This document shows positions 7,672 to 25,346 of a stretch of DNA of 64,000 nt, in pieces. Where the stretch lies: IMG/VR virus record IMGVR_UViG_3300028534_000028, positions 1,124-65,123 of that record; one strand, 5' to 3'. Source of the stretch: a virus. Position 1 is the stretch's first letter. Each line of letters opens with the position of its first letter. The position numbers were made by a program, and so were the translations under genes. The notes beneath the pieces are model-generated. The model saw nothing but the letters and a program-made list of their open reading frames with translations. It was not told the DNA's origin and made no database searches.

Positions 7672-7929
7672 TTGCCATATATTAAAAAAGAAGATCGTTT
7701 TGAAGCCTCAGATTCTCCAAAAAATGCAGGAGAGTTAAATTATGCAATTACTATTTTAATACAAAAGTATCTTCATAAAAATGGATTAAATTATCAACAT
7801 ATTAATGATGTCGTTGGAGCTCTCGAAGGAGCTAAAGCCGAATTTCAAAGACGAGTGGTTAACCCATATGAGGATACTAAAATTAAAGAAAATAATGATG
7901 TATATTCGAAAATATTTTTAGGAAAATAA
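7672..7929 (+). CDS. conserved small helical phage protein (DUF6899-like)
   Basis: TTG start with SD AAGGAG; MPYI...GELNYAIT...GALEGAKAEF.RRVV.PYED.KI..N.DVY. Confidence 0.65.
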   Translation: MPYIKKEDRFEASDSPKNAGELNYAITILIQKYLHKNGLNYQHINDVVGALEGAKAEFQRRVVNPYEDTKIKENNDVYSKIFLGK

Positions 7930-7930
7930 A

Positions 7931-9055
7931 ATGGATGTAGAAATCTTTAAAAAAGAATTTATTTTTATATTGCGAGGAAAAGAAACCATAAATATTCAAA
8001 AAGTCAATAAAAAATTAATTTTAGAATTTCCAAATATTTATAAAAAGATTTTAGATTATACCAAAGATTTTAATATTCATCCAGAATTAAATAATCTTGG
8101 TACTCTTTGCAAATTATGGTTTTATAAATTACCTAATCCAATTTGTAAAGAATGTGGAAAACCTATTAAGAAATTAGATAGATTATTTTGCTGTATTCAA
8201 TGTAGAAATAAAAATAAGGAACTGATAGAAATTTCTAAAAAAAGTTCTATTGAAAAGTATGGAGTATCACATTATTCAAAAACTACGGAATTTCGAGAAA
8301 AAATAAAAGAAATAACTCCATTTAAAAATAAAGATAAGATTAAAGAAGCCATTTTTAAAAAATATGGAGTTTATAATGTTTCTAAAATTCCGGAAATTAA
8401 AGAAAAAAGTACGAAAACATTTATAAAAAATTTTAGAAAAACGAATAATATTTCGAAAGAAAAGTTTTTAGAATTTAAAAATAATGATTTTTTAGATTTC
8501 GAAGGATTAGCTAATCGTTATAATTGGAGTCATCTTTCTTTATCTCAACCTAGAAAATGGGCTAAAAAATTAGAAATAGATTATAATAATCGTACAAATA
8601 CTTCTGTAAAAGAAAGAGAAATACTGTCTTTTATAAAAGATAATTATTCAGGTAAAATAATTACAAATGATAGAAACATTCTAAATGGTTTAGAATTAGA
8701 TATATATTTACCTGAATTAAAATTAGCTTTTGAATATAATGGTTTATATTGGCATAGTTATGGTTTAAATAATATTTCTAAAAAACAGAATGATATGGAA
8801 TTTCAGAAAAATCGACATTTGGATAAAATAATTAAATGTTCTAAAAGAGATATCGAATTAATTCATATTTTTGAAAATCAACTGTACGAAGACTTAATTT
8901 TAACCAAAATTAAGTCTTCTAGGCAATTTTCAAAGTTTGAATTAAAATGTTATAAATATAAAAATAATGATATAAGCGAAGCTTTCGAAATATTAATACC
9001 AAAATATTTATCAGAACATTATAGAATAATTTGGATTCCGGAGGAAATAAGGTGA
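7931..9055 (+). CDS. homing-type endonuclease with Zn finger, KYGV repeats and C-terminal PD-(D/E)XK domain
   Basis: CKECGK...CCIQC, two KYGV repeats, ELDIYLPELKLAFEYNGLYWHS. Confidence 0.8.
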   Translation: MDVEIFKKEFIFILRGKETINIQKVNKKLILEFPNIYKKILDYTKDFNIHPELNNLGTLCKLWFYKLPNPICKECGKPIKKLDRLFCCIQCRNKNKELIEISKKSSIEKYGVSHYSKTTEFREKIKEITPFKNKDKIKEAIFKKYGVYNVSKIPEIKEKSTKTFIKNFRKTNNISKEKFLEFKNNDFLDFEGLANRYNWSHLSLSQPRKWAKKLEIDYNNRTNTSVKEREILSFIKDNYSGKIITNDRNILNGLELDIYLPELKLAFEYNGLYWHSYGLNNISKKQNDMEFQKNRHLDKIIKCSKRDIELIHIFENQLYEDLILTKIKSSRQFSKFELKCYKYKNNDISEAFEILIPKYLSEHYRIIWIPEEIR

Positions 9056-10365
9056 ATATAGAAATTCCTAAAAAAATATTAAAAGAAAATAGTTGGCATA
9101 TTAAAGTAATGGGTGCTTATGTTCAGAATCCTGTTCCAGGTATTTATGGATTAGAAATTGATACTTTAATTAATTCAACGGATGCGGCAGCTCTATATCC
9201 AACAAGTACCGTTTATTCTAATATTTCTCCTGAAACGATTTTCGGAAGAATATATGATTCAAGTACAATTCAAAATTTTATAGGATTAATGGACAAGATT
9301 TTTCTTATGAAAAGTAAGGGTCAGACACCATCTCAAATTAAAACTTTGGTTATACCAAGTTTTAAATCAGCCATGTTACAATTACTAAAAAATTATAGTA
9401 CTCAACATAACGTTAAAAATAAAAAAGAAGCTGAATTAGTAACCACAGAATATTATTGTGAATTATTAAGTAAGTTAATTAATTACAATGGAAAATTAGA
9501 GGATATCTATACACCAAAAGATGATAAAACATATTATCTTTTGAGAAGTTGTTTCTTTCCCCTAATTGAAAGTATATCTTGGTTAAGTCCACAAAATAAA
9601 GGATTTAGCCAAATTACAATTGATTATATTTTTTATCCAGAATTATTTGAAACTAAATACCAAACTCAAAAAAGTTATTTATTTACGGATTACAATTCTG
9701 TAAATATTAATTTTAAAATTCTAGATAAAGAAGAATTAGTAAATAATTATTTTCAAAATTATTTACTAAATTCTTATGGTACTTTATTTTATAAACATTC
9801 TGAAAAACTAGCTTTTGAAGTTCAATTAATTATTGACGGATTGGCGGAAAGAAGAATTGTTAAAAATAAAATGCTAGTATTAGACGCGATTATAGCTAAA
9901 TTTAATTCATGTCCAAGTATTAAAAAAATATTTAAACATAGTATTGAATTTTTAGATGAAGAAATAGCGAATAATATTTTAACAGAAATAGAAGACGATC
10001 AGCCAAGACAAAAAAGAATACAATCTTTAATAAATATCGATTTCGAAGGAAAATCTTTTAACGATTCGGATAAATTATTAACTTATTTAAATATCAGAAA
10101 AGATCAATTTAATAGTAATCAAAATGGTATTAAAGTAAGTCTTAATAGTGGTTATGGAATTCTTGGAATGATTTCTTATGAATTCAGTGATCCATTATCA
10201 GCAAACAGTATTACAAATGCTGGAAAAATATTTGGAATTAAAGTTTTCCAAACAGTAAGCGCTTGGGTAATGGAATTATATGAAGAAAAATTAAAAGAAT
10301 GTGATGAAAGTAATAATTGGCTTGATCCAGAATGGGTCGATTTAAAATTATTAGAAGTTGCTTAA
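9052..10365 (+). CDS. family B DNA polymerase fragment (motifs A and B only)
   Basis: GTG start with SD GGAGG; GAYVQNPVPGIY, DAAALYPT (motif A), KVSLNSGYG (motif B); no exonuclease motifs and no YGDTDS. Confidence 0.85.
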   Translation: MNIEIPKKILKENSWHIKVMGAYVQNPVPGIYGLEIDTLINSTDAAALYPTSTVYSNISPETIFGRIYDSSTIQNFIGLMDKIFLMKSKGQTPSQIKTLVIPSFKSAMLQLLKNYSTQHNVKNKKEAELVTTEYYCELLSKLINYNGKLEDIYTPKDDKTYYLLRSCFFPLIESISWLSPQNKGFSQITIDYIFYPELFETKYQTQKSYLFTDYNSVNINFKILDKEELVNNYFQNYLLNSYGTLFYKHSEKLAFEVQLIIDGLAERRIVKNKMLVLDAIIAKFNSCPSIKKIFKHSIEFLDEEIANNILTEIEDDQPRQKRIQSLINIDFEGKSFNDSDKLLTYLNIRKDQFNSNQNGIKVSLNSGYGILGMISYEFSDPLSANSITNAGKIFGIKVFQTVSAWVMELYEEKLKECDESNNWLDPEWVDLKLLEVA

Positions 10366-11748: not shown

Positions 11749-12180
11749 ATGAAAAAGATATGTTTAATATCATGTGTTAAAAGTAAACGTGAAGGCCCTT
11801 GTAAAGCAGGTGAATTATACTGCGGTCAGTTATATACGGGACATTTAAAATACGCTAAGAGTCTTGGTTTTAAGGATAATGAAATTTACATATTAAGTGC
11901 TAAACACGGCTTATTATCATTCACCGATGTTATAGAACCGTATGAGAAAACTCTTAACAATATGAAAAAACCAGAACGTAATAAATGGGCAAGAAATACC
12001 TTAGAACAGCTTAAAAGTAAATTCGATATTAATAATACCGAATTTACGATTCTTGCTGGTAAAAATTACTACGAAAATTTAGAACCATTTTTACCAAACG
12101 TTAATTTGCCAAAAGAGTTGAAAGGTTTACCTATTGGAAAAAGAGTTCAGATGTTAAATAGTTTGGTTAAATCAAGATAA
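11749..12180 (+). CDS. DUF6884 / YaaA-like fold protein
   Basis: LISCVKSK...AGELY.G.LY...YILSAKHGLL...IEPYEKTL...LAGKNY...GLPIGKR. Confidence 0.7.
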   Translation: MKKICLISCVKSKREGPCKAGELYCGQLYTGHLKYAKSLGFKDNEIYILSAKHGLLSFTDVIEPYEKTLNNMKKPERNKWARNTLEQLKSKFDINNTEFTILAGKNYYENLEPFLPNVNLPKELKGLPIGKRVQMLNSLVKSR

Positions 12181-12898: not shown

Positions 12899-14875
12899 AT
12901 GAAAAAAAATAGAGTAAAAATACTTTCCGAAAAAACGCACGCCTTAAAACGAGCTGGTCGTTATTTAGGACAAATTACCCCTGCCGAAATTAATCGTTAT
13001 AGTATTTTCAATATTGATTCAAATGATTATATTTGGTATGATAAAATTGGATATGTTCCGGCAGTTCTTAAAATTTTTAGAGAGTTTTTAGATAATAGTA
13101 TAGATGAAGCCATTCGTACTAACTATAAATTCGCTAATAAAATAGAAGTAAATGTATATGCCGATCATTTAAGTATTAAAGATAATGGTAGAGGTATTCC
13201 TATTGTCCCAGCAGTAAATGAACATGGAGAAGAAATAGAAATTATGATGCCAGAAGCAGCTTGGGTAAATTTAAGAGCCGGTTCAAATTTTGACGACGAA
13301 GCTGATAATACAAGTATTGGTCAAAATGGAGAAGGTGCTTCTCTTGGAGTTTTCTTTGCTAAAAAATTTATTGGGGAAACTAGAGACGGTGAAAATATTT
13401 TTACAATTATTACTGAGAATAATGTCGAAACTAAAGAAATTGAGATAAAGAAGAAAAAACTATCTGGAGCTAAACGAGGTACAGATATAAAATTTTATCC
13501 AGATAAGGAAAAATTAAATTTAGGATCAGATGTTAATTTAGATGATGAATATTCATCTTTAATTAAATACGAACTACTATTTTTAAGTATGACTTATCCG
13601 GAAATTACTTTTAAAATTAATGGAGAAACTTTAAAAATTAAATCTTTTAAAGATATTAAACCATATTTTAATTATCCAAATGAATTGTTAAACGATAAAC
13701 GATTTGATTTCCAGTACTTCGAAACTGAAAATTTAGTTATTGGTATTGGTAATTCATTAAATAATGGATACACCAATATTCATTTTGTAAATGGTATTAA
13801 TGTTTATAATGGTGGAGATGTTTTAGAATGGGCTGAAAAAAGAGTTATCCAACCATTTGTTGAAAAAATTCAAAAAAAATATAAAAATATAAAAGCAGCC
13901 GATATAAAAAATCATTTAACGTTTATGGTTCTTGTTAAAAATATTCCAAATCCTAGATTTGGTGATCAAATCAAATCAGTTTGTATTAATACGGCTTCTC
14001 AATTTCCAGAAATTGCTAAAGAACTTTTAGATAAAGCAATGATCGATAAATTCATAAACAAACTTTATAAAAATAAAGTTATTATGGAACCGATTATTGA
14101 TATTTATAAAGCTACTCAAATCATGCTTGAAAATAAAAAAGCTAAAACTGCTCAAAAATCTAAAAAGACTCCAGCAAAATATTGGCCAGCTACGAAAAAA
14201 AAGAAAAGGTTATTTTTATCCGAAGGTGATTCTGCAATTAATCCTCTTATTTCCGAACTTGGTAGAGAGGAAAATGGTTTCTTTCCACTCAAGGGTAAGA
14301 TGATAAATTGTATGAAAAAAAGTTTAGCACTTGTTGTAAAAAATGATGAAGTTCTTGAACTTGCTGATATTCTTGGGATTGATCTTACTAAAGATAATAA
14401 TGGAGACGAAACACATCCATTAAATTACGAAGAGATTGTTATTGGATCGGATGCTGATGTTGATGGTTCACATATTGCTCTTTTAGTACTAGCGTTCTTT
14501 GCTAAATTTGCTCCAGCGTATTTAGAAAAATTAAGAATTTATAGATTTTTAACTCCAGTTCTAATTGCACTTAAAAATGAAAAACCTGTAAAAATGTTTT
14601 TTAAATTTGAGGATTATTTAGAATACGATTCCAATAAACCAGCTGGGGTATCATACTTCTATGCTAAAGGTCTTGGTTCGTTATCGGAAGAGCATTGGGA
14701 AGAATTGTTTAAAAAACATACCTTAGATGAGTTATGTCAACCATTAACTTTTGAAGGTTCTAGTGATATCGCTTTAGAAAAATTAGAATTTGATCAATGG
14801 TTAGGGGACGATACCAATTTCCGTAAAACAAAAGTACTTGAACTTTTATCGGATTTTGATTTAGATAAAACTTAG
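12899..14875 (+). CDS. type IIA topoisomerase ATPase/TOPRIM subunit (GyrB/ParE, T4 gp39+60-like)
   Basis: EFLDNSIDE, DNGRGIP, GSNF, GQNGEG, SEGDSA, PLKGK, DADVDG, KGLGS. Confidence 0.95.
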   Translation: MKKNRVKILSEKTHALKRAGRYLGQITPAEINRYSIFNIDSNDYIWYDKIGYVPAVLKIFREFLDNSIDEAIRTNYKFANKIEVNVYADHLSIKDNGRGIPIVPAVNEHGEEIEIMMPEAAWVNLRAGSNFDDEADNTSIGQNGEGASLGVFFAKKFIGETRDGENIFTIITENNVETKEIEIKKKKLSGAKRGTDIKFYPDKEKLNLGSDVNLDDEYSSLIKYELLFLSMTYPEITFKINGETLKIKSFKDIKPYFNYPNELLNDKRFDFQYFETENLVIGIGNSLNNGYTNIHFVNGINVYNGGDVLEWAEKRVIQPFVEKIQKKYKNIKAADIKNHLTFMVLVKNIPNPRFGDQIKSVCINTASQFPEIAKELLDKAMIDKFINKLYKNKVIMEPIIDIYKATQIMLENKKAKTAQKSKKTPAKYWPATKKKKRLFLSEGDSAINPLISELGREENGFFPLKGKMINCMKKSLALVVKNDEVLELADILGIDLTKDNNGDETHPLNYEEIVIGSDADVDGSHIALLVLAFFAKFAPAYLEKLRIYRFLTPVLIALKNEKPVKMFFKFEDYLEYDSNKPAGVSYFYAKGLGSLSEEHWEELFKKHTLDELCQPLTFEGSSDIALEKLEFDQWLGDDTNFRKTKVLELLSDFDLDKT

Positions 14876-14883
14876 GAAGAATT

Positions 14884-15291
14884 ATGATAGGTAATTCTCT
14901 TAGACAAAAAAAAATTAAAATTCCTATTAAAGTAGATCCAAAAAAAGAATATATGCTTTTACATATATTAAATAGTGATCAATTTCCAATGTATTTTGAA
15001 TTAGATGCAAATTATTTAAATTTATTATATACTCAAACCAAAGATCCCCATATAGAAACTTTATTACAATATGCAGAAGAATATGGTTATTTTGAAATAA
15101 AAACTCAAATGACTTTAATTACAGAATCTAATATTATCGAAGTAAATAAAAGCGGAGATTTTTTTCAAATATATCACGATCATCTTCATTGGAATTTTTT
15201 TAGTATTAAAAATATAATTCCTGGGAATGATAAAAAAGCTATTAATGAGTTACTTGGTATAGAGGAATTAAAAATTAGATTCGAGGAATAA
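14884..15291 (+). CDS. hypothetical protein
   Basis: 135 aa, between the topoisomerase subunits. Confidence 0.6.
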   Translation: MIGNSLRQKKIKIPIKVDPKKEYMLLHILNSDQFPMYFELDANYLNLLYTQTKDPHIETLLQYAEEYGYFEIKTQMTLITESNIIEVNKSGDFFQIYHDHLHWNFFSIKNIIPGNDKKAINELLGIEELKIRFEE

Positions 15292-15293
15292 GT

Positions 15294-15629
15294 ATGGAAT
15301 CGAAGGAAATTGATAAAATAATTTACGACGATAAAAATTATCCAATTATTATAGAATTAGATATTCATGAAATATTGTTAAATAGTTATTCTAGTGATCC
15401 AGATATGTATCTCTTAGCTCAGGATTTACCAAGCGAATTTTATTATAATACTAAAGATGATTTTTTTAAGATTATGAGATTAAGTATAGATGCTATTGGA
15501 AATAATTGCGTTGAGTTTATTCCGGAAATTAATTCACCATTTGATATAGTTATTCAACCGTGGATGATAAAAAAAATAAATATAAAAAAATCGAAAATAA
15601 TACAACCCATAAAAATTAACTTCGAATAA
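15294..15629 (+). CDS. hypothetical protein
   Basis: 111 aa, between the topoisomerase subunits. Confidence 0.6.
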   Translation: MESKEIDKIIYDDKNYPIIIELDIHEILLNSYSSDPDMYLLAQDLPSEFYYNTKDDFFKIMRLSIDAIGNNCVEFIPEINSPFDIVIQPWMIKKINIKKSKIIQPIKINFE

Positions 15630-15638
15630 AGGAGAAGT

Positions 15639-17036
15639 ATGTCAAATTTAAAAATGAAAGTATTTTTAGATGATGCCGTCGCAACTTACGCGGTTTATAA
15701 AGTAGTCCAACAGATCCCAGGATTTATAGATACTTTATCTCAAACTCAAAGAAAAATATTATACGTCATGAGCGAGGTTCCGGGTAAAAAAGTAAAGACT
15801 GCGGAAACTTTTACAATGATATATAATAAGACTAAGTATAGACATGGTGACGTTTCTGTATATACAACTGCTGAAAATTTAGCAGCTGATTATAATAACG
15901 GAATTTCTTTGCTAAAACCAGAAGGTACTTTTGGTTCGAGAACGGTTAAGAAAGCCTCTAGTCCAAGATACACTAGTGTAGTTTTTGGACAAAGTTCTCA
16001 AGGTATTTTTAATAAAAGAGATTATCCATTGATGGAAAAACAATATACCGAAGGTAAGCAAATTGAACCATATAATATGCTACCTATTGTACCACTTGGT
16101 TTAATTAATGGAGCCGATGGTATTGGTCTTGGTTTCAGTTGTAAAATATTTCAACGTAATCCAAATCAAATTATTGATATAATTATTGATATTTTATCCG
16201 GTAAACGTAAAAATATCCCAGCTAGTATAAAACCAGATTTTCCATTCTTTAATGGCAGTATTGAAAAAGGAGAAGGTAATTCGCAATTTGTAATGACTGG
16301 AGTTTTTAAAAAACTTCCAAGAAATACAATCGAAATTACAGAACTACCTGTTTCTATGGACAGAGAGAAATATATAAAATTTCTTGATACTTTACGGGAT
16401 GCTAAAAAGATTAGATCTTTTACAGATGAATGTAAAAAGAATACTTTTTACTTTAAGGTAAAAGTAGATCCAGAAATTTATAATTTAAACGATTCTAAAT
16501 TAATAGATTTATTTAAATTAAAAGAAACAATGTCCGATTCAATTACTTTATTACATAGAGAAGATGGTAAATATAATATTCTTACTTTTAATTCTGTATC
16601 TGAATTTTTAAAGGCTTGGATTATCGAAAGATTTAAATATTATAATCTTAGAAAAGAGTATGAATTAAGACATGCCGAAAATAGATTATTATTAGCTAAT
16701 GAAAAGATTAGATTTATCTATTGTATTTTAGATGGAAAAATTGTTGTAAATAGAAGATCTAAAGCCGATATAGAAAAGCAAATTATAGACAATGGTTTTA
16801 AACCGATGTCTAATGATTCGCAAAGTTCCGAGGAAGATAAAAGTTTTAGGTATTTGCTAAATATGCCGATATATAATTTAAGTTTAGAACAGATTGAAGT
16901 TCTTAAAAAACAGAAGGGGGATATTGAAAAAGAGATTAGCGAATTTAGTTCTTTGTCTCCAGCCGATATATGGATAGACGAATTAAAAGGTTTAAAAAAG
17001 ATTATTTCAAAAGAGCAAAAGTTAAAAGAACTTTAA
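15639..17036 (+). CDS. type IIA topoisomerase breakage-reunion subunit (GyrA/ParC, T4 gp52-like)
   Basis: SQTQRKILY, YRHGD, G.FGSR, SPRYT catalytic Tyr, PLGLING.DGIG.GF. Confidence 0.95.
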   Translation: MSNLKMKVFLDDAVATYAVYKVVQQIPGFIDTLSQTQRKILYVMSEVPGKKVKTAETFTMIYNKTKYRHGDVSVYTTAENLAADYNNGISLLKPEGTFGSRTVKKASSPRYTSVVFGQSSQGIFNKRDYPLMEKQYTEGKQIEPYNMLPIVPLGLINGADGIGLGFSCKIFQRNPNQIIDIIIDILSGKRKNIPASIKPDFPFFNGSIEKGEGNSQFVMTGVFKKLPRNTIEITELPVSMDREKYIKFLDTLRDAKKIRSFTDECKKNTFYFKVKVDPEIYNLNDSKLIDLFKLKETMSDSITLLHREDGKYNILTFNSVSEFLKAWIIERFKYYNLRKEYELRHAENRLLLANEKIRFIYCILDGKIVVNRRSKADIEKQIIDNGFKPMSNDSQSSEEDKSFRYLLNMPIYNLSLEQIEVLKKQKGDIEKEISEFSSLSPADIWIDELKGLKKIISKEQKLKEL

Positions 17037-17509: not shown

Positions 17510-17721
17510 TGAATGCAATTGAAATAGATGAAATTAGAAAGTGTTTTAATACACTTATTTGGTCAGGTGGTTCTGAAGCACCGGCTGAAGCTGTTTGGGC
17601 AGCAAATGATTTTATGAAGTTATTTTTAAATAAAGATGATATTATTTTATTAGATGAAGAAAGTTCTAATTGGGATGATTTTATAGAACAATTAAATCGA
17701 GTAAAGGTGAACTATGAGTAG
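17509..17721 (+). CDS. hypothetical protein
   Basis: 70 aa, coupled. Confidence 0.6.
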   Translation: MNAIEIDEIRKCFNTLIWSGGSEAPAEAVWAANDFMKLFLNKDDIILLDEESSNWDDFIEQLNRVKVNYE

Positions 17722-19810
17722 GAGAGGAAGACGTCGAAACGCTCGTAATAAAAATAAAGAGCAACAAAAAAATCAGAAAACTGTAACTGGAGAAGAGTTG
17801 GGATTTCAGAGAGGTCCTAAAGAAAAGCTTACAAAAGCACAAAAAAAAGCACAAAAAAAACAACGCAAAAAGGAAGAAAAAATGGCAGCGAGATTTAATT
17901 TAAATGGAACTAGAAAAACATGGTTTGGTGGTGGTAAACATGCCGCAGGTGGATACAAAACAATTGCAAAACCCAGTGATGGAACAGATGATAAAACATT
18001 AAATATAGTTTTATTCAAACAATCGTTTTTAAATAATTTGGCTAATCAGTGTGTTCCTGTCGCTGGTGGAGCGGAGTTTCAGGTGCATTACCGAGCATTA
18101 CAAATTATAATTACTAAGGAACGTATTGGTAGAATAGTTTATACAATACCAACTGTATTTTTTAATTTTAATCAAACCGTAACATCGGGATCGGTTGATT
18201 ATGATCTGGTTGAAGTTGACAAGATTTCTAAAGAGCTTCAACCAGAATCTATGGAAGTTGCGAATCAAATTGCTGCTTTATTCCCAAAAGCCTTTTTTGA
18301 AGGCAATGGTTTTACAGTAAGTTTTAAGGAAGATGAGGTTGGTAGTATTCATAGACACCCAGGTGATTTTTCTTTCAGTAGTATCGATTTAGATAATAAT
18401 CCGCAACATCCAGGGGTTATTTATAGACGCGGTAATGCATCCGATTTAATTCAAACGGATTCGGTAATGTATATCACTGGCTCAGCTGGCTCACAACATG
18501 TTAAATTGGTTACTACTCAAACACGTGTCGTAAACGTAAGTTTATTAAACAATGGTGAAGATGGTATTAAAGGTTCTTATAATAGAGCAAAAACTGTAGC
18601 TCTTATTCTTAAAGATACTGATACCGCCGAAACTATTCAGCAAAAAATTAGTATTGATTTCAATGCCTTTTTTAACGAAAACGAAGTTCAGGAAATAACC
18701 ACCCCTGGTATGGATACCGTTAAAGAAGATTTTCTTCCTAGATACGATAAAATCAAAGAGGATGAAATTCAAGAAGTTCTTGAAAATACAGCAAAAATAT
18801 TTAAATTGATTGCTGTGAAAGTTCCTGCTCCAATTACAAAAGTCGATGAAAAGCTTATCAAGTCACGAGGGTATGGAAACTATGCTGGGAGTGGATATGG
18901 ATATCAGGTTTATGGTAATAACCGTACCATTGGTAATGTTCGTCATTATGATCATGTTACTGGTACTTGGGTAGATGAAGAAGAGGAAGAGGAAAAACTT
19001 CCATTAAAATTCGATGTATTGGATTTTTTAAAATTTAAAGGTCTTGATAAAAAAGATACTAAAGTTACAGAAATCTTAGCTGATGATGTAGTTAAAGAGA
19101 TGTTTTGGATGTGTGCCGGAGAAGATGAAAAAGTAAATTTTAAATTAAATGATAAGTTGGTAATTATTGAACCAGTATCTAAAGCATCGCAACTTCTTAA
19201 AGTTACTTATGCTGGGACATCATCGTATAAAGCTAAAAGTATTTTTGAGAACAATGATGTCTCAGAAGAACTTAAAGAAGCTGGCTATATTAACGAAGAA
19301 GAAGAAGATGATATAGATTTATTAGAATATGTTGGTCTTGATGAAACCGAAATACCTACAAATACCGAATTAGCTACGGAACAACCGGAAGCAGAAGAAG
19401 CTGCTAAATCAGGAGGAATAAATTCTGGTCATACCGATGTTAAAGAATTGGAAAAATCACAAGAGCTTTTAAAAATTACAAAATTATTTGAAAAGCATGG
19501 TTTACGTATCCCAGAACGTCTTTTAAAAGATATTGGTAAAGATACTCAATGTGAGCAAATTTTTAAGAAAGCTTATCCTGGAGTTCTTTACGATAACAAT
19601 GGTCTTCTTAAAGTTTATGGAGAAGATGGTTTTAGTGAAATATTGATGATGTTACCAGTAGATACTGGTATTTTATTTTATCCAAAAACAGATACTGATT
19701 CATTTGTATATATCGCACCAATAGACGAAGGTGATACACATGGTAATGTTACATTCTGTAATAATGCGGTAGAGTTTTCCAAACAGGTTCCATTATATCA
19801 AAAGGATTAA
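17714..19810 (+). CDS. JAB/MPN (JAMM) metallopeptidase-like protein with basic N-terminus and acidic C-terminal region
   Basis: E121 (GAEFQ) plus H213-R-H215-x6-S222-xx-D225 (HRHPGDFSFSSID). Confidence 0.6.
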   Translation: MSRRGRRRNARNKNKEQQKNQKTVTGEELGFQRGPKEKLTKAQKKAQKKQRKKEEKMAARFNLNGTRKTWFGGGKHAAGGYKTIAKPSDGTDDKTLNIVLFKQSFLNNLANQCVPVAGGAEFQVHYRALQIIITKERIGRIVYTIPTVFFNFNQTVTSGSVDYDLVEVDKISKELQPESMEVANQIAALFPKAFFEGNGFTVSFKEDEVGSIHRHPGDFSFSSIDLDNNPQHPGVIYRRGNASDLIQTDSVMYITGSAGSQHVKLVTTQTRVVNVSLLNNGEDGIKGSYNRAKTVALILKDTDTAETIQQKISIDFNAFFNENEVQEITTPGMDTVKEDFLPRYDKIKEDEIQEVLENTAKIFKLIAVKVPAPITKVDEKLIKSRGYGNYAGSGYGYQVYGNNRTIGNVRHYDHVTGTWVDEEEEEEKLPLKFDVLDFLKFKGLDKKDTKVTEILADDVVKEMFWMCAGEDEKVNFKLNDKLVIIEPVSKASQLLKVTYAGTSSYKAKSIFENNDVSEELKEAGYINEEEEDDIDLLEYVGLDETEIPTNTELATEQPEAEEAAKSGGINSGHTDVKELEKSQELLKITKLFEKHGLRIPERLLKDIGKDTQCEQIFKKAYPGVLYDNNGLLKVYGEDGFSEILMMLPVDTGILFYPKTDTDSFVYIAPIDEGDTHGNVTFCNNAVEFSKQVPLYQKD

Positions 19811-20858: not shown

Positions 20859-21839
20859 ATGAAAAAAATTCAAAAGATTATGGAATTATTAGAAAGTGAC
20901 TATGGAATTAAAGGTACTGCAAAACAAGTACTCGCAAAAAAAGAAATTGCCGAAAAGTTAATTCTTACAACCGAAATGGATCCATTTAATAGTCAAGAGG
21001 ATGCAAAAAAAGTTCTTAAAGTACTTAAGAAGTGCCAAAAAATTGCTACGAAAAATGATTTGATGGATCAAATTGGAGATATTTTAAAATTTCTAGAAAT
21101 GGTTATTCTTGGAAAACTAGAAAACGATTTAAAAGAAAATCCTGAACCAGTATTGAATAAAGAAGAAGCTTTAGAAATCAATAAACTTGCCAATGAGTTA
21201 AGTAATACGTTGAATGAGACATTTGGTGTAATAATTAAAAAAGATACCACTGAAGATAAAGATTATGAATGCGATATTGTCGAATTACCATCTAATTTTA
21301 TAAATGGTAAAGTTGATGAACCAAGTGGGATACGTTTATCGAAACTTATGGAAATTGCTTTCGTAAAAAAGGATAACGGAACTGTTTCATTAACTGCTAC
21401 TAATCTTCCAAAAGAGATTTCTAAAAAGGAATTTAAAAATCTTTTGAAAGCCGATGGTCTTTGGTTAAACAAAGAAACTATTTTAAAAGAAGGTGATCAT
21501 CGTTTGAAAGCTCGAATTTTATATTCGAAGAAATCTATTACTTTACTTTTGGTTGATAAAAATGTAAAAATAGAAACAGGTAATAAAGAAATTATCGCTC
21601 AAAAAATTGTATTGATACAAAAGAAAACCAAAAATGGTAAAGTTAAACTTAAAATTCCTGAATTTCTTAATATTGCCAATATGAAAGTTAAAGATATTAT
21701 AAAAAGTAAAAGTTTGAGAAAATTCTTGAAAGAAGTTGAATTTGACCACTCTTTTGGTTTAGTAGCGAATCAATATTGTATAGACGATCAAAATAACTTT
21801 TACCGTATTTGTATTCCATACAAAAAGAGAACAAAATGA
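20859..21839 (+). CDS. hypothetical protein
   Basis: 326 aa lysine-rich ORF. Confidence 0.7.
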   Translation: MKKIQKIMELLESDYGIKGTAKQVLAKKEIAEKLILTTEMDPFNSQEDAKKVLKVLKKCQKIATKNDLMDQIGDILKFLEMVILGKLENDLKENPEPVLNKEEALEINKLANELSNTLNETFGVIIKKDTTEDKDYECDIVELPSNFINGKVDEPSGIRLSKLMEIAFVKKDNGTVSLTATNLPKEISKKEFKNLLKADGLWLNKETILKEGDHRLKARILYSKKSITLLLVDKNVKIETGNKEIIAQKIVLIQKKTKNGKVKLKIPEFLNIANMKVKDIIKSKSLRKFLKEVEFDHSFGLVANQYCIDDQNNFYRICIPYKKRTK

Positions 21840-22570
21840 AAAGTATTGCTATCATTTCTAGTAGTGGTGGTTTAGATTCAAGTGCCTTAATTTATAAGGT
21901 ACTTAATGAAACTGATTGGGATATCGTTCTAGTTAGTTTTAATTATGGGCAAGTTAATAAAGTGGAACTTATGGCTCAAGAAAAGTTATACAGTATTTTA
22001 AAAGAAAGTAAATTTTCGAATAGAGTACTTATGAGAGCTAAATTAAGAATTCCTCTTTTCGATGATATTGGATTGGTAAATATGCAGGGTATTGATAATG
22101 CTGACCATGAGTACTATACTCCAAGCAGAAATTTATTATTTGGTACTACCGTAGCTAGTTTTGGCGAAGCTATTGCTACTAAGTACGGTTATGATAATAT
22201 CTTTCTTGGTATGGGTTTACATAAACATACCGAAGAAGCTTATGGCGAGGGAGAAGTTTCTCAGTATTGGGATATTACTCCAGAATTTGTCAAAAGACTT
22301 CAATATGTTTTTGATCTTAATGATCAAAAACATATTGAAATTTACGCACCTTATATAGATTCTTATAAAAAGGATATTATTAAAGATGTTGTAAAATATC
22401 AAGTTCCGTATAAAAATACTTGGACTTGTTACGAACCGCAATTAATACAGGATAATGAAAGAGATATCTATACTCCTTGTCTTAAATGCGAAGCTTGTAT
22501 AGAGCGGGAAATTAATGCAAGAGGAATTATCGATAATATTAACGATTATAAAATAGTTTTAGAATCGTAA
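21836..22570 (+). CDS. queC: 7-cyano-7-deazaguanine (preQ0) synthase
   Basis: SSGGLDS, FNYGQ, PSRNLLF, TWTCY...CLKCEAC zinc site; ATGA-coupled start at 21836. Confidence 0.9.
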   Translation: MKSIAIISSSGGLDSSALIYKVLNETDWDIVLVSFNYGQVNKVELMAQEKLYSILKESKFSNRVLMRAKLRIPLFDDIGLVNMQGIDNADHEYYTPSRNLLFGTTVASFGEAIATKYGYDNIFLGMGLHKHTEEAYGEGEVSQYWDITPEFVKRLQYVFDLNDQKHIEIYAPYIDSYKKDIIKDVVKYQVPYKNTWTCYEPQLIQDNERDIYTPCLKCEACIEREINARGIIDNINDYKIVLES

Positions 22571-22769: not shown

Positions 22770-25346
22770 ATGATCTATAAAAATTTAACAAACGAGGTCC
22801 TTGACCTCGTAACGGAAAGTATCACGGAAGCAAAAGTAAATGGAATTATTGATAACCACCCAGGCATCTTATTAAAAGTTATCCTTTCGAAAGATACAAT
22901 CCTTAGAAGCATTCTGGAAGATCTTGAAGTTGATATTAATGGTATTTTCAATATTATCGATGACCAAATTAAAAATGATCCTATTAAATATGGCGAAGAT
23001 GCGGATACTTCGTTTGGTTCATTTACTCCAGAATATATCCAACTATTCGACACTGCTCATGAATTAGCTCTTCGCAATATGGATAAATATCTAGCATTAG
23101 ATATTTTGATCATTGCTGGTATTAGCGAAGGAAATCCATTCTATACTTATCTAAATCAATTCCTTGATTTAGATTTACTTGAGATGTATATTAAATCTCT
23201 TCGTGGTGATAGAAAAATAAATGAGAAAAGTTTTAAAGAGCAAAGTTTCTTAACAACTTTTTGTATTAACTTAAATGAGAAATACTTATCCGGTGATTGC
23301 GATTTAGTTCACGGTAGAGTGGACGAAATCGATAGGGTGGCTAATATTCTTAGTAAACGTACTAAGAATAATCCTATTTTAGTTGGAGAACCAGGAGTTG
23401 GTAAAACTGCTATAGCAGAAGGAATGGCAGGTAAAATTGTCAATCATGAAATTGAAAATCTTACAGATGTCGTTATTTGGAATCTTGATTTAACTGTTCT
23501 TATGAGTAATGCTAGTAAAGAAGAAGTTGCTGGTCGTATGAATGGATTGATTAAAGAGATTCAAAGAAAAAATAAATTCGAAGATTCCAAAATCGTTCTA
23601 TTCATTGATGAAATCCATCTTATCGTTGATAATCATGGCGGTATGGATTTAGCAAATATTTTAAAACCTGCTTTAGCTCGTGGGGAACTTAAAACAATTG
23701 GTGCAACTACTACTAAAGAGTACAACAAGTATTTTGAAAAAGATCCAGCAATTCAACGTCGTTTTCAACTCGTGAAAATTGATGAACCAGATGAAGAACA
23801 AACATTAGTTATTTTAAGAGGACTTAGAGAAAAAATCGAAGAGTTCCATAAGATCGAAGTAACGGACGAAGCTTTAGTAGCAGCTGTTAAATTATCTAAA
23901 CGTTATATTACTGATAGATTTTTACCAGATAAAGCAATTGATCTTTTGGACGAAGCAGCTTCTGTAGTAAGTAACTCTAGATTTATCGAAAGTACCGAAA
24001 TTAAAAAACTAAGATTAAAAATTCAAGAACTTGAATTTAAAATTAAAGGTGTTGAAAAAAGTATGGGGTCTTCTGATAAAGAAAGTTTTATTGCAAAACA
24101 GCAATCTTATTGGGAAGAACTTATCGATGAGCTTAGTAAACATAAATTACAACTTGACGAATTGGTAAACGAATTTAAATTAGCTAAAGTAAATCGTCAA
24201 CTAATTATGAAATTATCAAATGAAGTTAAACAAGCTGAGCAAGAAGCTTTCGAAGCAAAAGCTGAATTAGATTTAGATAAAGTAATTGAATTGGAAAAAA
24301 ATATTATTCCAAAACTACTAAAAGAAATTGAAGAAATTGAATCTGGTGTAGTTTCAGTTAATGTCCAAAAAAGTGATATTTCCCCAGTAGTTGAAAACTG
24401 GACAGGTATTCCAATGGAAAAAATCCAAGAAGAAGATTCTAATGAAAATATCAAAAATATTCTTGAGTTATTGAAGGATCGTGTAAAAGGTCAGGATGAA
24501 ACTCTAGAAGAAATTTCTAAAGCTATTCGTAGAAATAGCGCTGGTCTTTCTAAAGAAGGTAAACCAGTTGGTAGTTTTATGTTACTTGGACCAACAGGTA
24601 CTGGTAAAACAGAAACTGCTAAAAGTATTGCGGAAATTGTTTTTGGAGATGCTAAAAATATGGTAAGATTCGATATGTCTGAATTTATGGAACCACATAC
24701 TGTATCTAAATTCATTGGTAGTCCTGCTGGTTATGTTGGGCATGATGATGGTGGACAGCTTACAAACGCAATTAAACGCAATCCATATTCTTTAATCTTA
24801 TTTGATGAAATTGAAAAAGCTCATCCAAAAATCTTTGATATACTTTTACAAGTACTTGATGATGGTAGATTAAGAGATGGTAAAGGTCAAGTGGTAGACT
24901 TCAGTAATACAATAATTGTATTTACTAGTAATATTGGTGGAAGCGATTTAGCTAATATTCCGAATAAAGTTGTTCGAAATAAAGAAAAAATGCGTTTATT
25001 ACAAGAAACTTATAGACCAGAGTTTTTAAATAGATTAGACTGTATTTCGGTTTTTAATAAACTAGATATGGTTAATCTTATTGAGATTCTTAATCGTAAT
25101 CTTGATAATCTTGCTGAAAAACTTTGGAAAGATCGTTATATTAGTATTATGGTATCTGATGAATTTAAAGCTCATCTTATCTCAAGTATCGATATTGAAG
25201 CATTTGGAGCAAGACCTCTTAATAGATTAATTTCGTCTGAAATCGAAGATAAAGTTACCGATTTAATTCTCGATGGAAAATTAGAAATAGGTTCCGAAAT
25301 TATTTTCGAAATGGCGGATGATAAAATTATAGTAGAGGTGATATAA
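22770..25346 (+). CDS. clpB: ClpB-type AAA+ disaggregase
   Basis: [22 protein letters not shown], coiled-coil middle domain, [31 protein letters not shown]. Confidence 0.93.

Follow-up and report, generated by a model that had tools for sequence, protein, structure and literature searches.

A previously unannotated family of predicted JAMM/MPN+ metalloproteases in uncultivated large phages

Results

Organization of the gene and its product

JAMM enzymes constitute the metalloprotease arm of ubiquitin-like signalling, and bacterial representatives have recently been tied to the antiphage systems CBASS (antiphage signalling system based on cyclic oligonucleotides, through Cap3), Bil and Bub. 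Here we describe a gene for a predicted JAMM/MPN+ protein, P0001, on a 64-kb stretch of phage DNA (hereafter the window). The window spans positions 1,124 to 65,123 of the 65.9-kb IMG/VR virus record IMGVR_UViG_3300028534_000028, the completeness of which is estimated at 23%. Its G+C content is approximately 27%, and nearly all genes up to about 43 kb lie on one strand. The open reading frame (ORF) of P0001 begins with an 8-nt overlap with the stop of an upstream 70-aa ORF, and a Shine-Dalgarno (SD)-like sequence (AAAGGTG) is located 4 nt 5′ of its ATG. The gene and the elements of its product are as follows.

17714..19810, + strand: whole gene of P0001, 698 codons open; basic tail, MPN/JAMM core, disordered linker and two C-terminal domains
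17714..17881, + strand: K/R-rich N-terminal tail, aa 1-56; start shared with homologues
17870..17884, + strand: candidate second start, consisting of an internal in-frame SD-like AAGGAAG (17870-17876) and the ATG of M57 (17882-17884)
17966..18613, + strand: predicted MPN/JAMM (MPN+) metalloprotease core, aa ~85-300
18074..18076, + strand: E121, JAMM-motif residue and candidate general base; invariant and at the start of a β-strand in the model
18350..18388, + strand: H213-x-H215-x6-S222-x-x-D225, candidate zinc ligands and oxyanion serine; invariant and in register with Prok-JAB
18614..18997, + strand: linker, aa 301-428, mostly disordered; contains a single long helix, a stretch rich in G and Y and a run of acidic residues; predicted local distance difference test (pLDDT) 33-62
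18998..19285, + strand: C-terminal domain 1, aa ~429-524; helices, four-stranded sheet, helix; only in the long-form clade (see below)
19448..19807, + strand: C-terminal domain 2, aa ~579-698; helices and a four-stranded sheet; only in the long-form clade

An original prediction made from the nucleotide sequence had described a 698-aa ORF with E121 and an HxH-x6-SxxD motif, an R/K-rich N-terminal tail and acidic low-complexity segments in the C-terminal part. The catalytic residues were located at the positions given there, and 32% of residues 1-81 are lysine or arginine. Both acidic runs are also present, DEEEEEEE near residues 421-428 and NEEEEDD near residues 527-533; they flank the C-terminal domains, and the linkers around them were modelled as disordered. 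The linker following the core harbors a conserved FxxFF motif and I382, which belongs to a family DPxLI motif (DEKLI in P0001). The model of residues 300-698 reached an overall pLDDT of 65 and consists of two confident domains (pLDDT 81-90) with an acidic disordered linker between them. Neither C-terminal domain gave a confident match in the PDB, and hints of Whirly- or PUR-like folds stayed below significance.

The core is predicted to fold into an MPN domain with an invariant JAMM motif

Structure prediction of residues 80-320 with AlphaFold2, based on a 52-sequence alignment, yielded a model with a pLDDT of 91.3 and a predicted template modelling score of 0.86. A Foldseek search with this model returned 190 PDB matches at E≤1e-3, and every match listed was an MPN protein. 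Among them were Rpn11, CSN5/6, Npl4, BRCC36/Abraxas, AMSH, the Caldiarchaeum Rpn11 homologue and the bacterial ubiquitin-like protein (Ubl) deubiquitinase 8TYX. The best named matches among viral predicted structures were annotated as 'MPN family', 'JAB domain-containing' and, in a crAss-like phage, '26S proteasome regulatory subunit'. Canonical MPN+ enzymes such as Rpn11 and AfJAMM hold the catalytic glutamate at the start of a strand. In the model, E121 starts a strand and the HxH element ends one, as in solved JAMM enzymes. Hence, the core of P0001 is modelled with the MPN α/β fold that defines the JAMM/MPN+ superfamily, and all five residues of the E / HxH / SxxD motif can be read from its sequence.

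Conservation of these residues was examined in alignments of 34 close homologues, 52 close members and 64 distant members with 22-34% identity. E121, H213, H215, S222 and D225 were invariant across 115 aligned family members. Residues invariant in the 34 close sequences included P87, P115, A117, E121, Q123, H125, H213, R214, H215, P216, G217, F219, F221, S222 and D225, while the invariant set of the 64 distant members comprised E121, P146, H213, H215, P216, F221, S222, D225 and G234. This invariance over close and distant members rules out a chance motif. In P0001 the motif reads H213-R-H215-P-G-D-F-S-F-S222-S-I-D225. A profile alignment with hhalign against 30 natural Prok-JAB proteins, drawn from 151 Pseudomonadota genomes, placed G-S-I-H-R-H-P-G..F-S-x-x-D-L in register with I-Y-H-S-H-P-d..P-S-p-T-D-L (pairwise E 8e-4 to 1.2e-3, 32-33 columns, probability 20-25%), with the one-residue gap falling in a loop. 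The lambda K family was aligned in the same register (E 0.006); the homologue search for lambda K had returned only close relatives. These signals are weak and concordant with the MPN fold. The JAB/JAMM domain that had been proposed from the motif is thus supported by the predicted fold, by the invariance of the motif residues and by the register shared with Prok-JAB. A fold other than MPN, which would have spoken against the original prediction, was not obtained. Comparisons with single JAB sequences were uninformative, as the match to YeeS was spurious and off the motif and that to lambda K was local to the motif.

The spacer between the second histidine and the serine had been noted as one residue shorter than the canonical x7. 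An x6 spacer is indeed present, and it occurs in 52 of 52 close members. It is no oddity of this protein, since the distant alignment contains spacers of x7 (24 sequences), x9 (19), x6 (11), x8 (9) and x11 (1). With a family range of x6 to x11 and the canonical x7 most common among distant members, the x6 spacer is a mere difference in the length of a variable loop.

A large phage family isolated in sequence

P0001 scored below the curated cut-offs of both Pfam JAB (PF01398) and Prok-JAB (PF14464), and is therefore placed in the structural superfamily only and not in those Pfam families. A JAB-type Pfam match was likewise absent in the 52 close members, and PF14464 was not found in the record containing the window. 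The only PHROGs match of P0001 was a family of unknown function at E 0.027. When P0001 and two distant members served as tblastn queries, no match was retrieved from 50,697 GenBank phage records.

Relatives were found in metagenomic data. A word-indexed search gave 55 of them, and a profile run against 1.84 billion representatives gave 330 at E≤1e-3, 306 of which had E≤1e-10. These counts describe a large family with sharp limits that does not shade into the wider JAB superfamily. Its members are mostly 350-500 aa long; a long form of about 600-700 aa makes up a small clade that includes the window. The largest contigs measure 200-285 kb, which indicates jumbo phages, and two genomes with a completeness of 97-100% each contain the gene as a single copy. 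A Rho_N/SAP-like domain (E 1e-4) is found in two distant members. The searches define a previously unannotated JAMM family that is found only in uncultivated large phages.

Two genes precede the JAMM gene in most relatives

We compared ten loci, namely the window, three located by looking up the exact protein, and six IMG/VR loci. Two genes, designated c3 (approximately 300-380 aa) and c5 (approximately 340-390 aa), were present immediately upstream of the JAMM gene in seven and six of them, respectively, in the order c3, c5, JAMM. This cassette usually lies between topoisomerase II and SbcCD-like genes. c3 was found in all three loci that lack topoisomerase II and in the most divergent locus (29% identity). 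The positions are as follows.

L005:5904-8001, c3-c5 pair upstream of the JAMM gene
L006:5968-7988, c3-c5 pair upstream of the JAMM gene
L009:7788-9881, c3-c5 pair upstream of the JAMM gene
L010:7682-9779, c3-c5 pair upstream of the JAMM gene; c3 at 7682-8659 and c5 at 8649-9779
L011:6795-9063, c3-c5 pair upstream of the JAMM gene
L012:6602-8658, c3-c5 pair upstream of the JAMM gene
L013:8245-9138, c3; c5 not detected at this locus, with an unrelated-looking 274-aa ORF in its place

The invariant residues of c3 (G-x-G-G-x-x-x-N ... E-x-D ... N-x-x-R ... G-A-P ... T-R ... H ... E-x-Y-G) follow, as read from the sequences, the pattern of ThiF/MoeB/E1 adenylation domains. Alignment with E. coli MoeB by hhalign (E 5e-4, 62 columns) brought GxGG, D.D and NLxRQ into register. 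A 31-sequence c3 profile produced sub-threshold matches to the NEDD8-E1 subunit UBA3 (E 0.12), spanning the D.D..sNL.R segment, and to FtsZ, over the glycine loop only. Weak Pfam ThiF matches occurred in 9 of the 31 c3 members (best 0.0073), far above any other family, and language-model features placed c3 nearest to the ThiF and BilD_N clusters (0.88-0.89), which we treat as a lead only. Taken together, these signals, none of them significant singly, make c3 a probable E1-like protein. It contains no invariant cysteine, a feature shared with the peptidase-E1 fusion BubCD. An invariant cysteine together with NPLHP and PYYG motifs characterizes c5. A search of the ESM Atlas with c5 gave low scores only (0.79, GNAT/CBS) and was not used. 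Taken with the JAMM gene, c3 and c5 resemble a Bub/Bil-like cassette carried by phages.

c3 and c5 are absent from the available DNA of the long-form clade

In the window and in L002, L003 and L008, neither c3 nor c5 was found by hidden Markov model (HMM) searches or hhalign. A screen of the 81 ORFs of the window for divergent versions reached a best hhalign probability of 1.4%. The c3 profile found no homologue in the window's own record or in the 114-kb relative G001, and found one in G003. Across the metagenomic data, the longest contigs of several c3 homologues matched in size those found for short-form JAMM proteins (285272, 9446, 11930, 5780, 5489, 16342, 28853, 5082 and 122127), and no c3 homologue was found on the contigs with long-form proteins (281328, 204228, 223310 and 224699). 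An E1 gene of the ThiF type beside the JAB gene, as in Bub, Bil and CBASS modules, was not found in the window or its clade. The position of the JAMM gene is unchanged, so that the simplest history is one in which the long-form clade lost c3 and c5 and acquired the tail and the two C-terminal domains. The idea that the C-terminal half of the long form is a fused c3 or c5 was rejected, as neither hmmsearch nor hhalign revealed any similarity.

One assembly, GCA_029935855.1, contains both arrangements: a long-form JAMM gene without c3 and c5 on a 223-kb contig (L002) and a short-form JAMM gene with c3 and c5 on a 114-kb contig (L006). Either two phages were binned together or one very large genome carries two paralogues.

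Genes surrounding the JAMM gene

In the window, the JAMM gene is surrounded by the following genes.

11749-12180, + strand: DUF6884-family protein (cluster c9)
12899-14875, + strand: topoisomerase II large subunit
14884-15291 and 15294-15629, + strand: two small ORFs between the topoisomerase II subunit genes
15639-17036, + strand: topoisomerase II small subunit
between the topoisomerase II small-subunit gene and the JAMM gene: ORFs of 121 aa and 70 aa
19812-20849, directly after the JAMM gene: SbcD-like metallophosphoesterase
between the SbcD-like and QueC-like genes: 326-aa ORF without assignment
21809-22570, + strand: QueC-like PP-loop enzyme
22770-25346, + strand: ClpB/ClpC-like double AAA+ unfoldase of 858 aa (Clp_N, AAA, AAA_lid_9, AAA_2, ClpB_D2-small)

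Topoisomerase II subunits are encoded upstream of the JAMM gene in seven of the ten loci. Downstream, a phosphoesterase gene is present in six loci and an SbcC-like ATPase gene in five. The QueC neighbour is not family-wide; it occurs in four loci, one of which has a short-form JAMM gene. At L011, a c9 homologue lies between c5 and the JAMM gene. This placement points to a possible connection with genes for the modification of DNA or bases. The ClpB/ClpC-like gene, three genes downstream, was considered as a 'proteasome-like' partner and given no weight, because it is confined to three closely related long-form loci (the window, L002 and L008). L008, a close relative, has an extra homing-endonuclease-like ORF inserted before the topoisomerase II small-subunit gene.

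The basic tail and a candidate second start

An N-terminal tail of at least 15 aa is present in 109 family members, 68 of which have at least 25% K+R in it. Within the family, the basic tail is a feature of the nearer half; no tail is seen in the most distant members, and that of the window's clade is longer. The tail is coding, because its MSRRGR start is common to homologues with 39% identity. Towards its end, a K-K-E-K-K-M / K-G-K-N-M pattern recurs, and the column of M57 is occupied by methionine in 22 of 34 aligned sequences. An AAGGA-type motif is positioned 5-8 nt before the ATG equivalent to that of M57 in six distinct loci (the window, L002, L005/L010, L008, L009 and L011). The maintenance of this motif and of an in-frame ATG in six loci makes tailed and tail-less isoforms plausible, with M57 as a putative second start for the tail-less one.

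Discussion

P0001 represents a structurally recognisable, sequence-isolated JAMM variant with an unusual architecture and with an unexpected link, at the level of its family, to a putative E1-like gene. The predicted fold and the residue invariance support well, short of proof, its assignment as a JAMM peptidase or isopeptidase that is predicted to be active. Solved JAMM enzymes suggest a role for each motif residue: H213, H215 and D225 would be the ligands of a single Zn2+, E121 would serve to activate the water bound to the zinc, and S222 would lend stability to the tetrahedral intermediate. Such an enzyme may release a ubiquitin-like protein or peptide tag by cleaving the peptide or isopeptide bond behind its extended C-terminal tail. 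Because most members follow a phage-encoded E1-like gene, the ancestral partner was presumably the phage's own machinery, and the loss of this partner in the window clade leaves a stand-alone deconjugase or processing role possible. The window protein may thus be an orphaned form with either of these roles, whose added tail and domains could supply specificity for substrates or location, perhaps on nucleic-acid-bound proteins. As an explanation of the whole, we favour, with some reservation, an active JAMM/MPN+ zinc (iso)peptidase orphaned from a phage E1/JAMM tagging module.

Several observations weigh against this explanation. Pfam gave no JAB match for P0001 even at E≤10 and only a meaningless DUF5939 match at E 0.098, phmmer and two family profiles retrieved nothing relevant from the PDB, and just two of the 64 distant members touched Prok-JAB, at E 0.039. 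Probabilities assigned by hhalign were low (6-25%), over alignments of only about 33 columns. Secondary structure assignment with DSSP detected no helix after HxH where canonical JAMM proteins have the SxxD helix. As for the proposed module, each of the several weak signals for an E1-like c3 is non-significant alone, and an FtsZ-type GxGGxxN match scores about equally. Pfam ThiF stayed below its cut-off in five related records, two of them 97-100% complete, when a canonical phage E1 was sought, and the single weak ThiF match among these records is another ORF. c5 had no Pfam, PHROG or ESM family match. No Ubl was found, and no small ORF with a Gly-Gly end was seen next to the cassette. Finally, c3 and c5 could lie outside the window record, which is 23% complete.

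A bolder extension holds that, within their DNA replication module, the large phages of this lineage encode a ubiquitination-like tagging system of their own, composed of the E1-like c3, of c5 as a possible carrier, E2 or Ubl fusion, and of the JAMM protein. The window protein would then be a derived stand-alone form that either reverses host Ubl immunity or, by deconjugation, controls phage or host proteins bound to DNA. We put this forward only tentatively. Alternatively, as the original prediction had proposed, the protein might serve in counter-defence, stripping host Ubl tags from phage proteins or deconjugating primed CD-NTase and thereby disarming Bil-, Bub- or type II CBASS-like immunity. 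A stand-alone deconjugase fits this proposal, as do structural neighbours that include BubCD, BilC and Cap3, although structural similarity cannot tell JAMM subfamilies apart. No target system or Ubl was identified, and nothing in our data ties P0001 to a host system. Moreover, anti-defence genes are commonly patchy in distribution, whereas the JAMM gene sits as a single copy in a conserved replication/repair block that is syntenic across divergent phages, and most relatives carry their own E1-like gene alongside, which points to a phage-internal pathway. Counter-defence therefore appears unlikely to us.

A further alternative is a processing protease without any Ubl tag, which would mature a phage or host protein such as a phage polyprotein or replication factor, or clear proteins trapped on DNA next to topoisomerase II, with the basic tail as a tether to nucleic acid. 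Its neighbours, the topoisomerase II subunits, the SbcD-like phosphoesterase and, in relatives, the SbcC-like ATPase, agree with such a function, as do the K/R-rich tail and the Rho_N/SAP-like domain of the two distant members; in some systems JAB domains do cut linear peptide bonds, for instance BubCD acting on BubAB. DNA binding is, however, suggested by composition alone, the members most distant in the family are tail-less, and the Whirly/PUR-like hints are non-significant. In addition, topoisomerase adjacency is missing from three of the ten loci, where c3/c5 adjacency is kept. We regard this role as improbable. An inert MPN scaffold that provides only protein-protein contacts, comparable to Rpn8, CSN6 or Prp8, is less probable still: MPN− scaffolds have lost the JAMM motif residues, whereas the five JAMM residues together with P216 and F221 are invariant in 115 aligned members. 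P0001 can hardly belong to a known phage or prophage JAB group either. RadC-like proteins (E. coli YeeS; C. tepidum RadC, 2QLC) resemble it in their JAB fold, their occurrence on mobile elements and a loose tie to genes of DNA metabolism, and the lambda K family is a phage-encoded JAB whose HxHPG...SxxD motif aligns in register with P0001. Nevertheless, RadC scored well below deubiquitinase-type JAMMs, P0001 has no NlpC/P60 domain or tail-module context, and no sequence match to either family was obtained.

Returning to the orphaned JAMM (iso)peptidase that we favour, the c3-c5-JAMM cassette is reminiscent of Bub, Bil and CBASS Cap2/Cap3, in which the JAB enzyme serves to mature the tag, to take it off its targets, or both. 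Bub (peptidase-E1 fusion BubCD, 9EA4), Bil (BilC, 8TYX/8TYY) and type II CBASS (Cap3, 9ILD) are host defence operons, whereas the family described here resides on phage genomes in the replication module. In contrast to those operons, no recognisable E2 or Ubl was found, and the window has no E1-like and c5 genes. Prokaryotic stand-alone JAMM/MPN+ enzymes of the deubiquitinase-like type (P. furiosus JAMM1, 5LD9/5LDA; the Caldiarchaeum Rpn11 homologue, 6FNN; AfJAMM, 1R5X) have no detectable sequence similarity to P0001. Their core of about 130 aa compares with about 215 aa in P0001, which further differs in its x6 spacer, the lack of a called helix after SxxD in the model, the basic N-terminal tail, about 400 extra C-terminal residues and the restriction of its family to phages. 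Neither a phage E1/JAMM cassette nor a phage JAB counter-defence enzyme directed at Bil, Bub or CBASS was described in the literature searched, which included a survey of jumbo phages (PMC7824862).

The roughly 330 clusters define a phage-only JAMM family that sequence annotation had wholly missed, a clean case of structure-only family discovery in the dark matter of jumbo phages. Most of its members are linked to the putative E1-like gene; in the window lineage the JAMM gene appears orphaned and elaborated. Should the enzyme prove active, it would open a testable route to either of two possibilities, protein tagging run by phages or the reversal of host Ubl immunity by phages.

A phage JAB enzyme acting on a phage substrate has been proposed before, for lambda K and the Ubl-like TAPI protein that it may process (PMC1779556). 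In the lambda K family, PF14464 and PF00877 are both recognised by Pfam and the gene belongs to the tail module, whereas the neighbours of P0001 are replication and repair genes. The K protein encoded in J02459 (L015:477-1076) is a 199-aa form shorter by the N-terminal ~48 aa than the common 247-aa homologues, and the 199-aa forms in the database lose the Prok-JAB call of Pfam.

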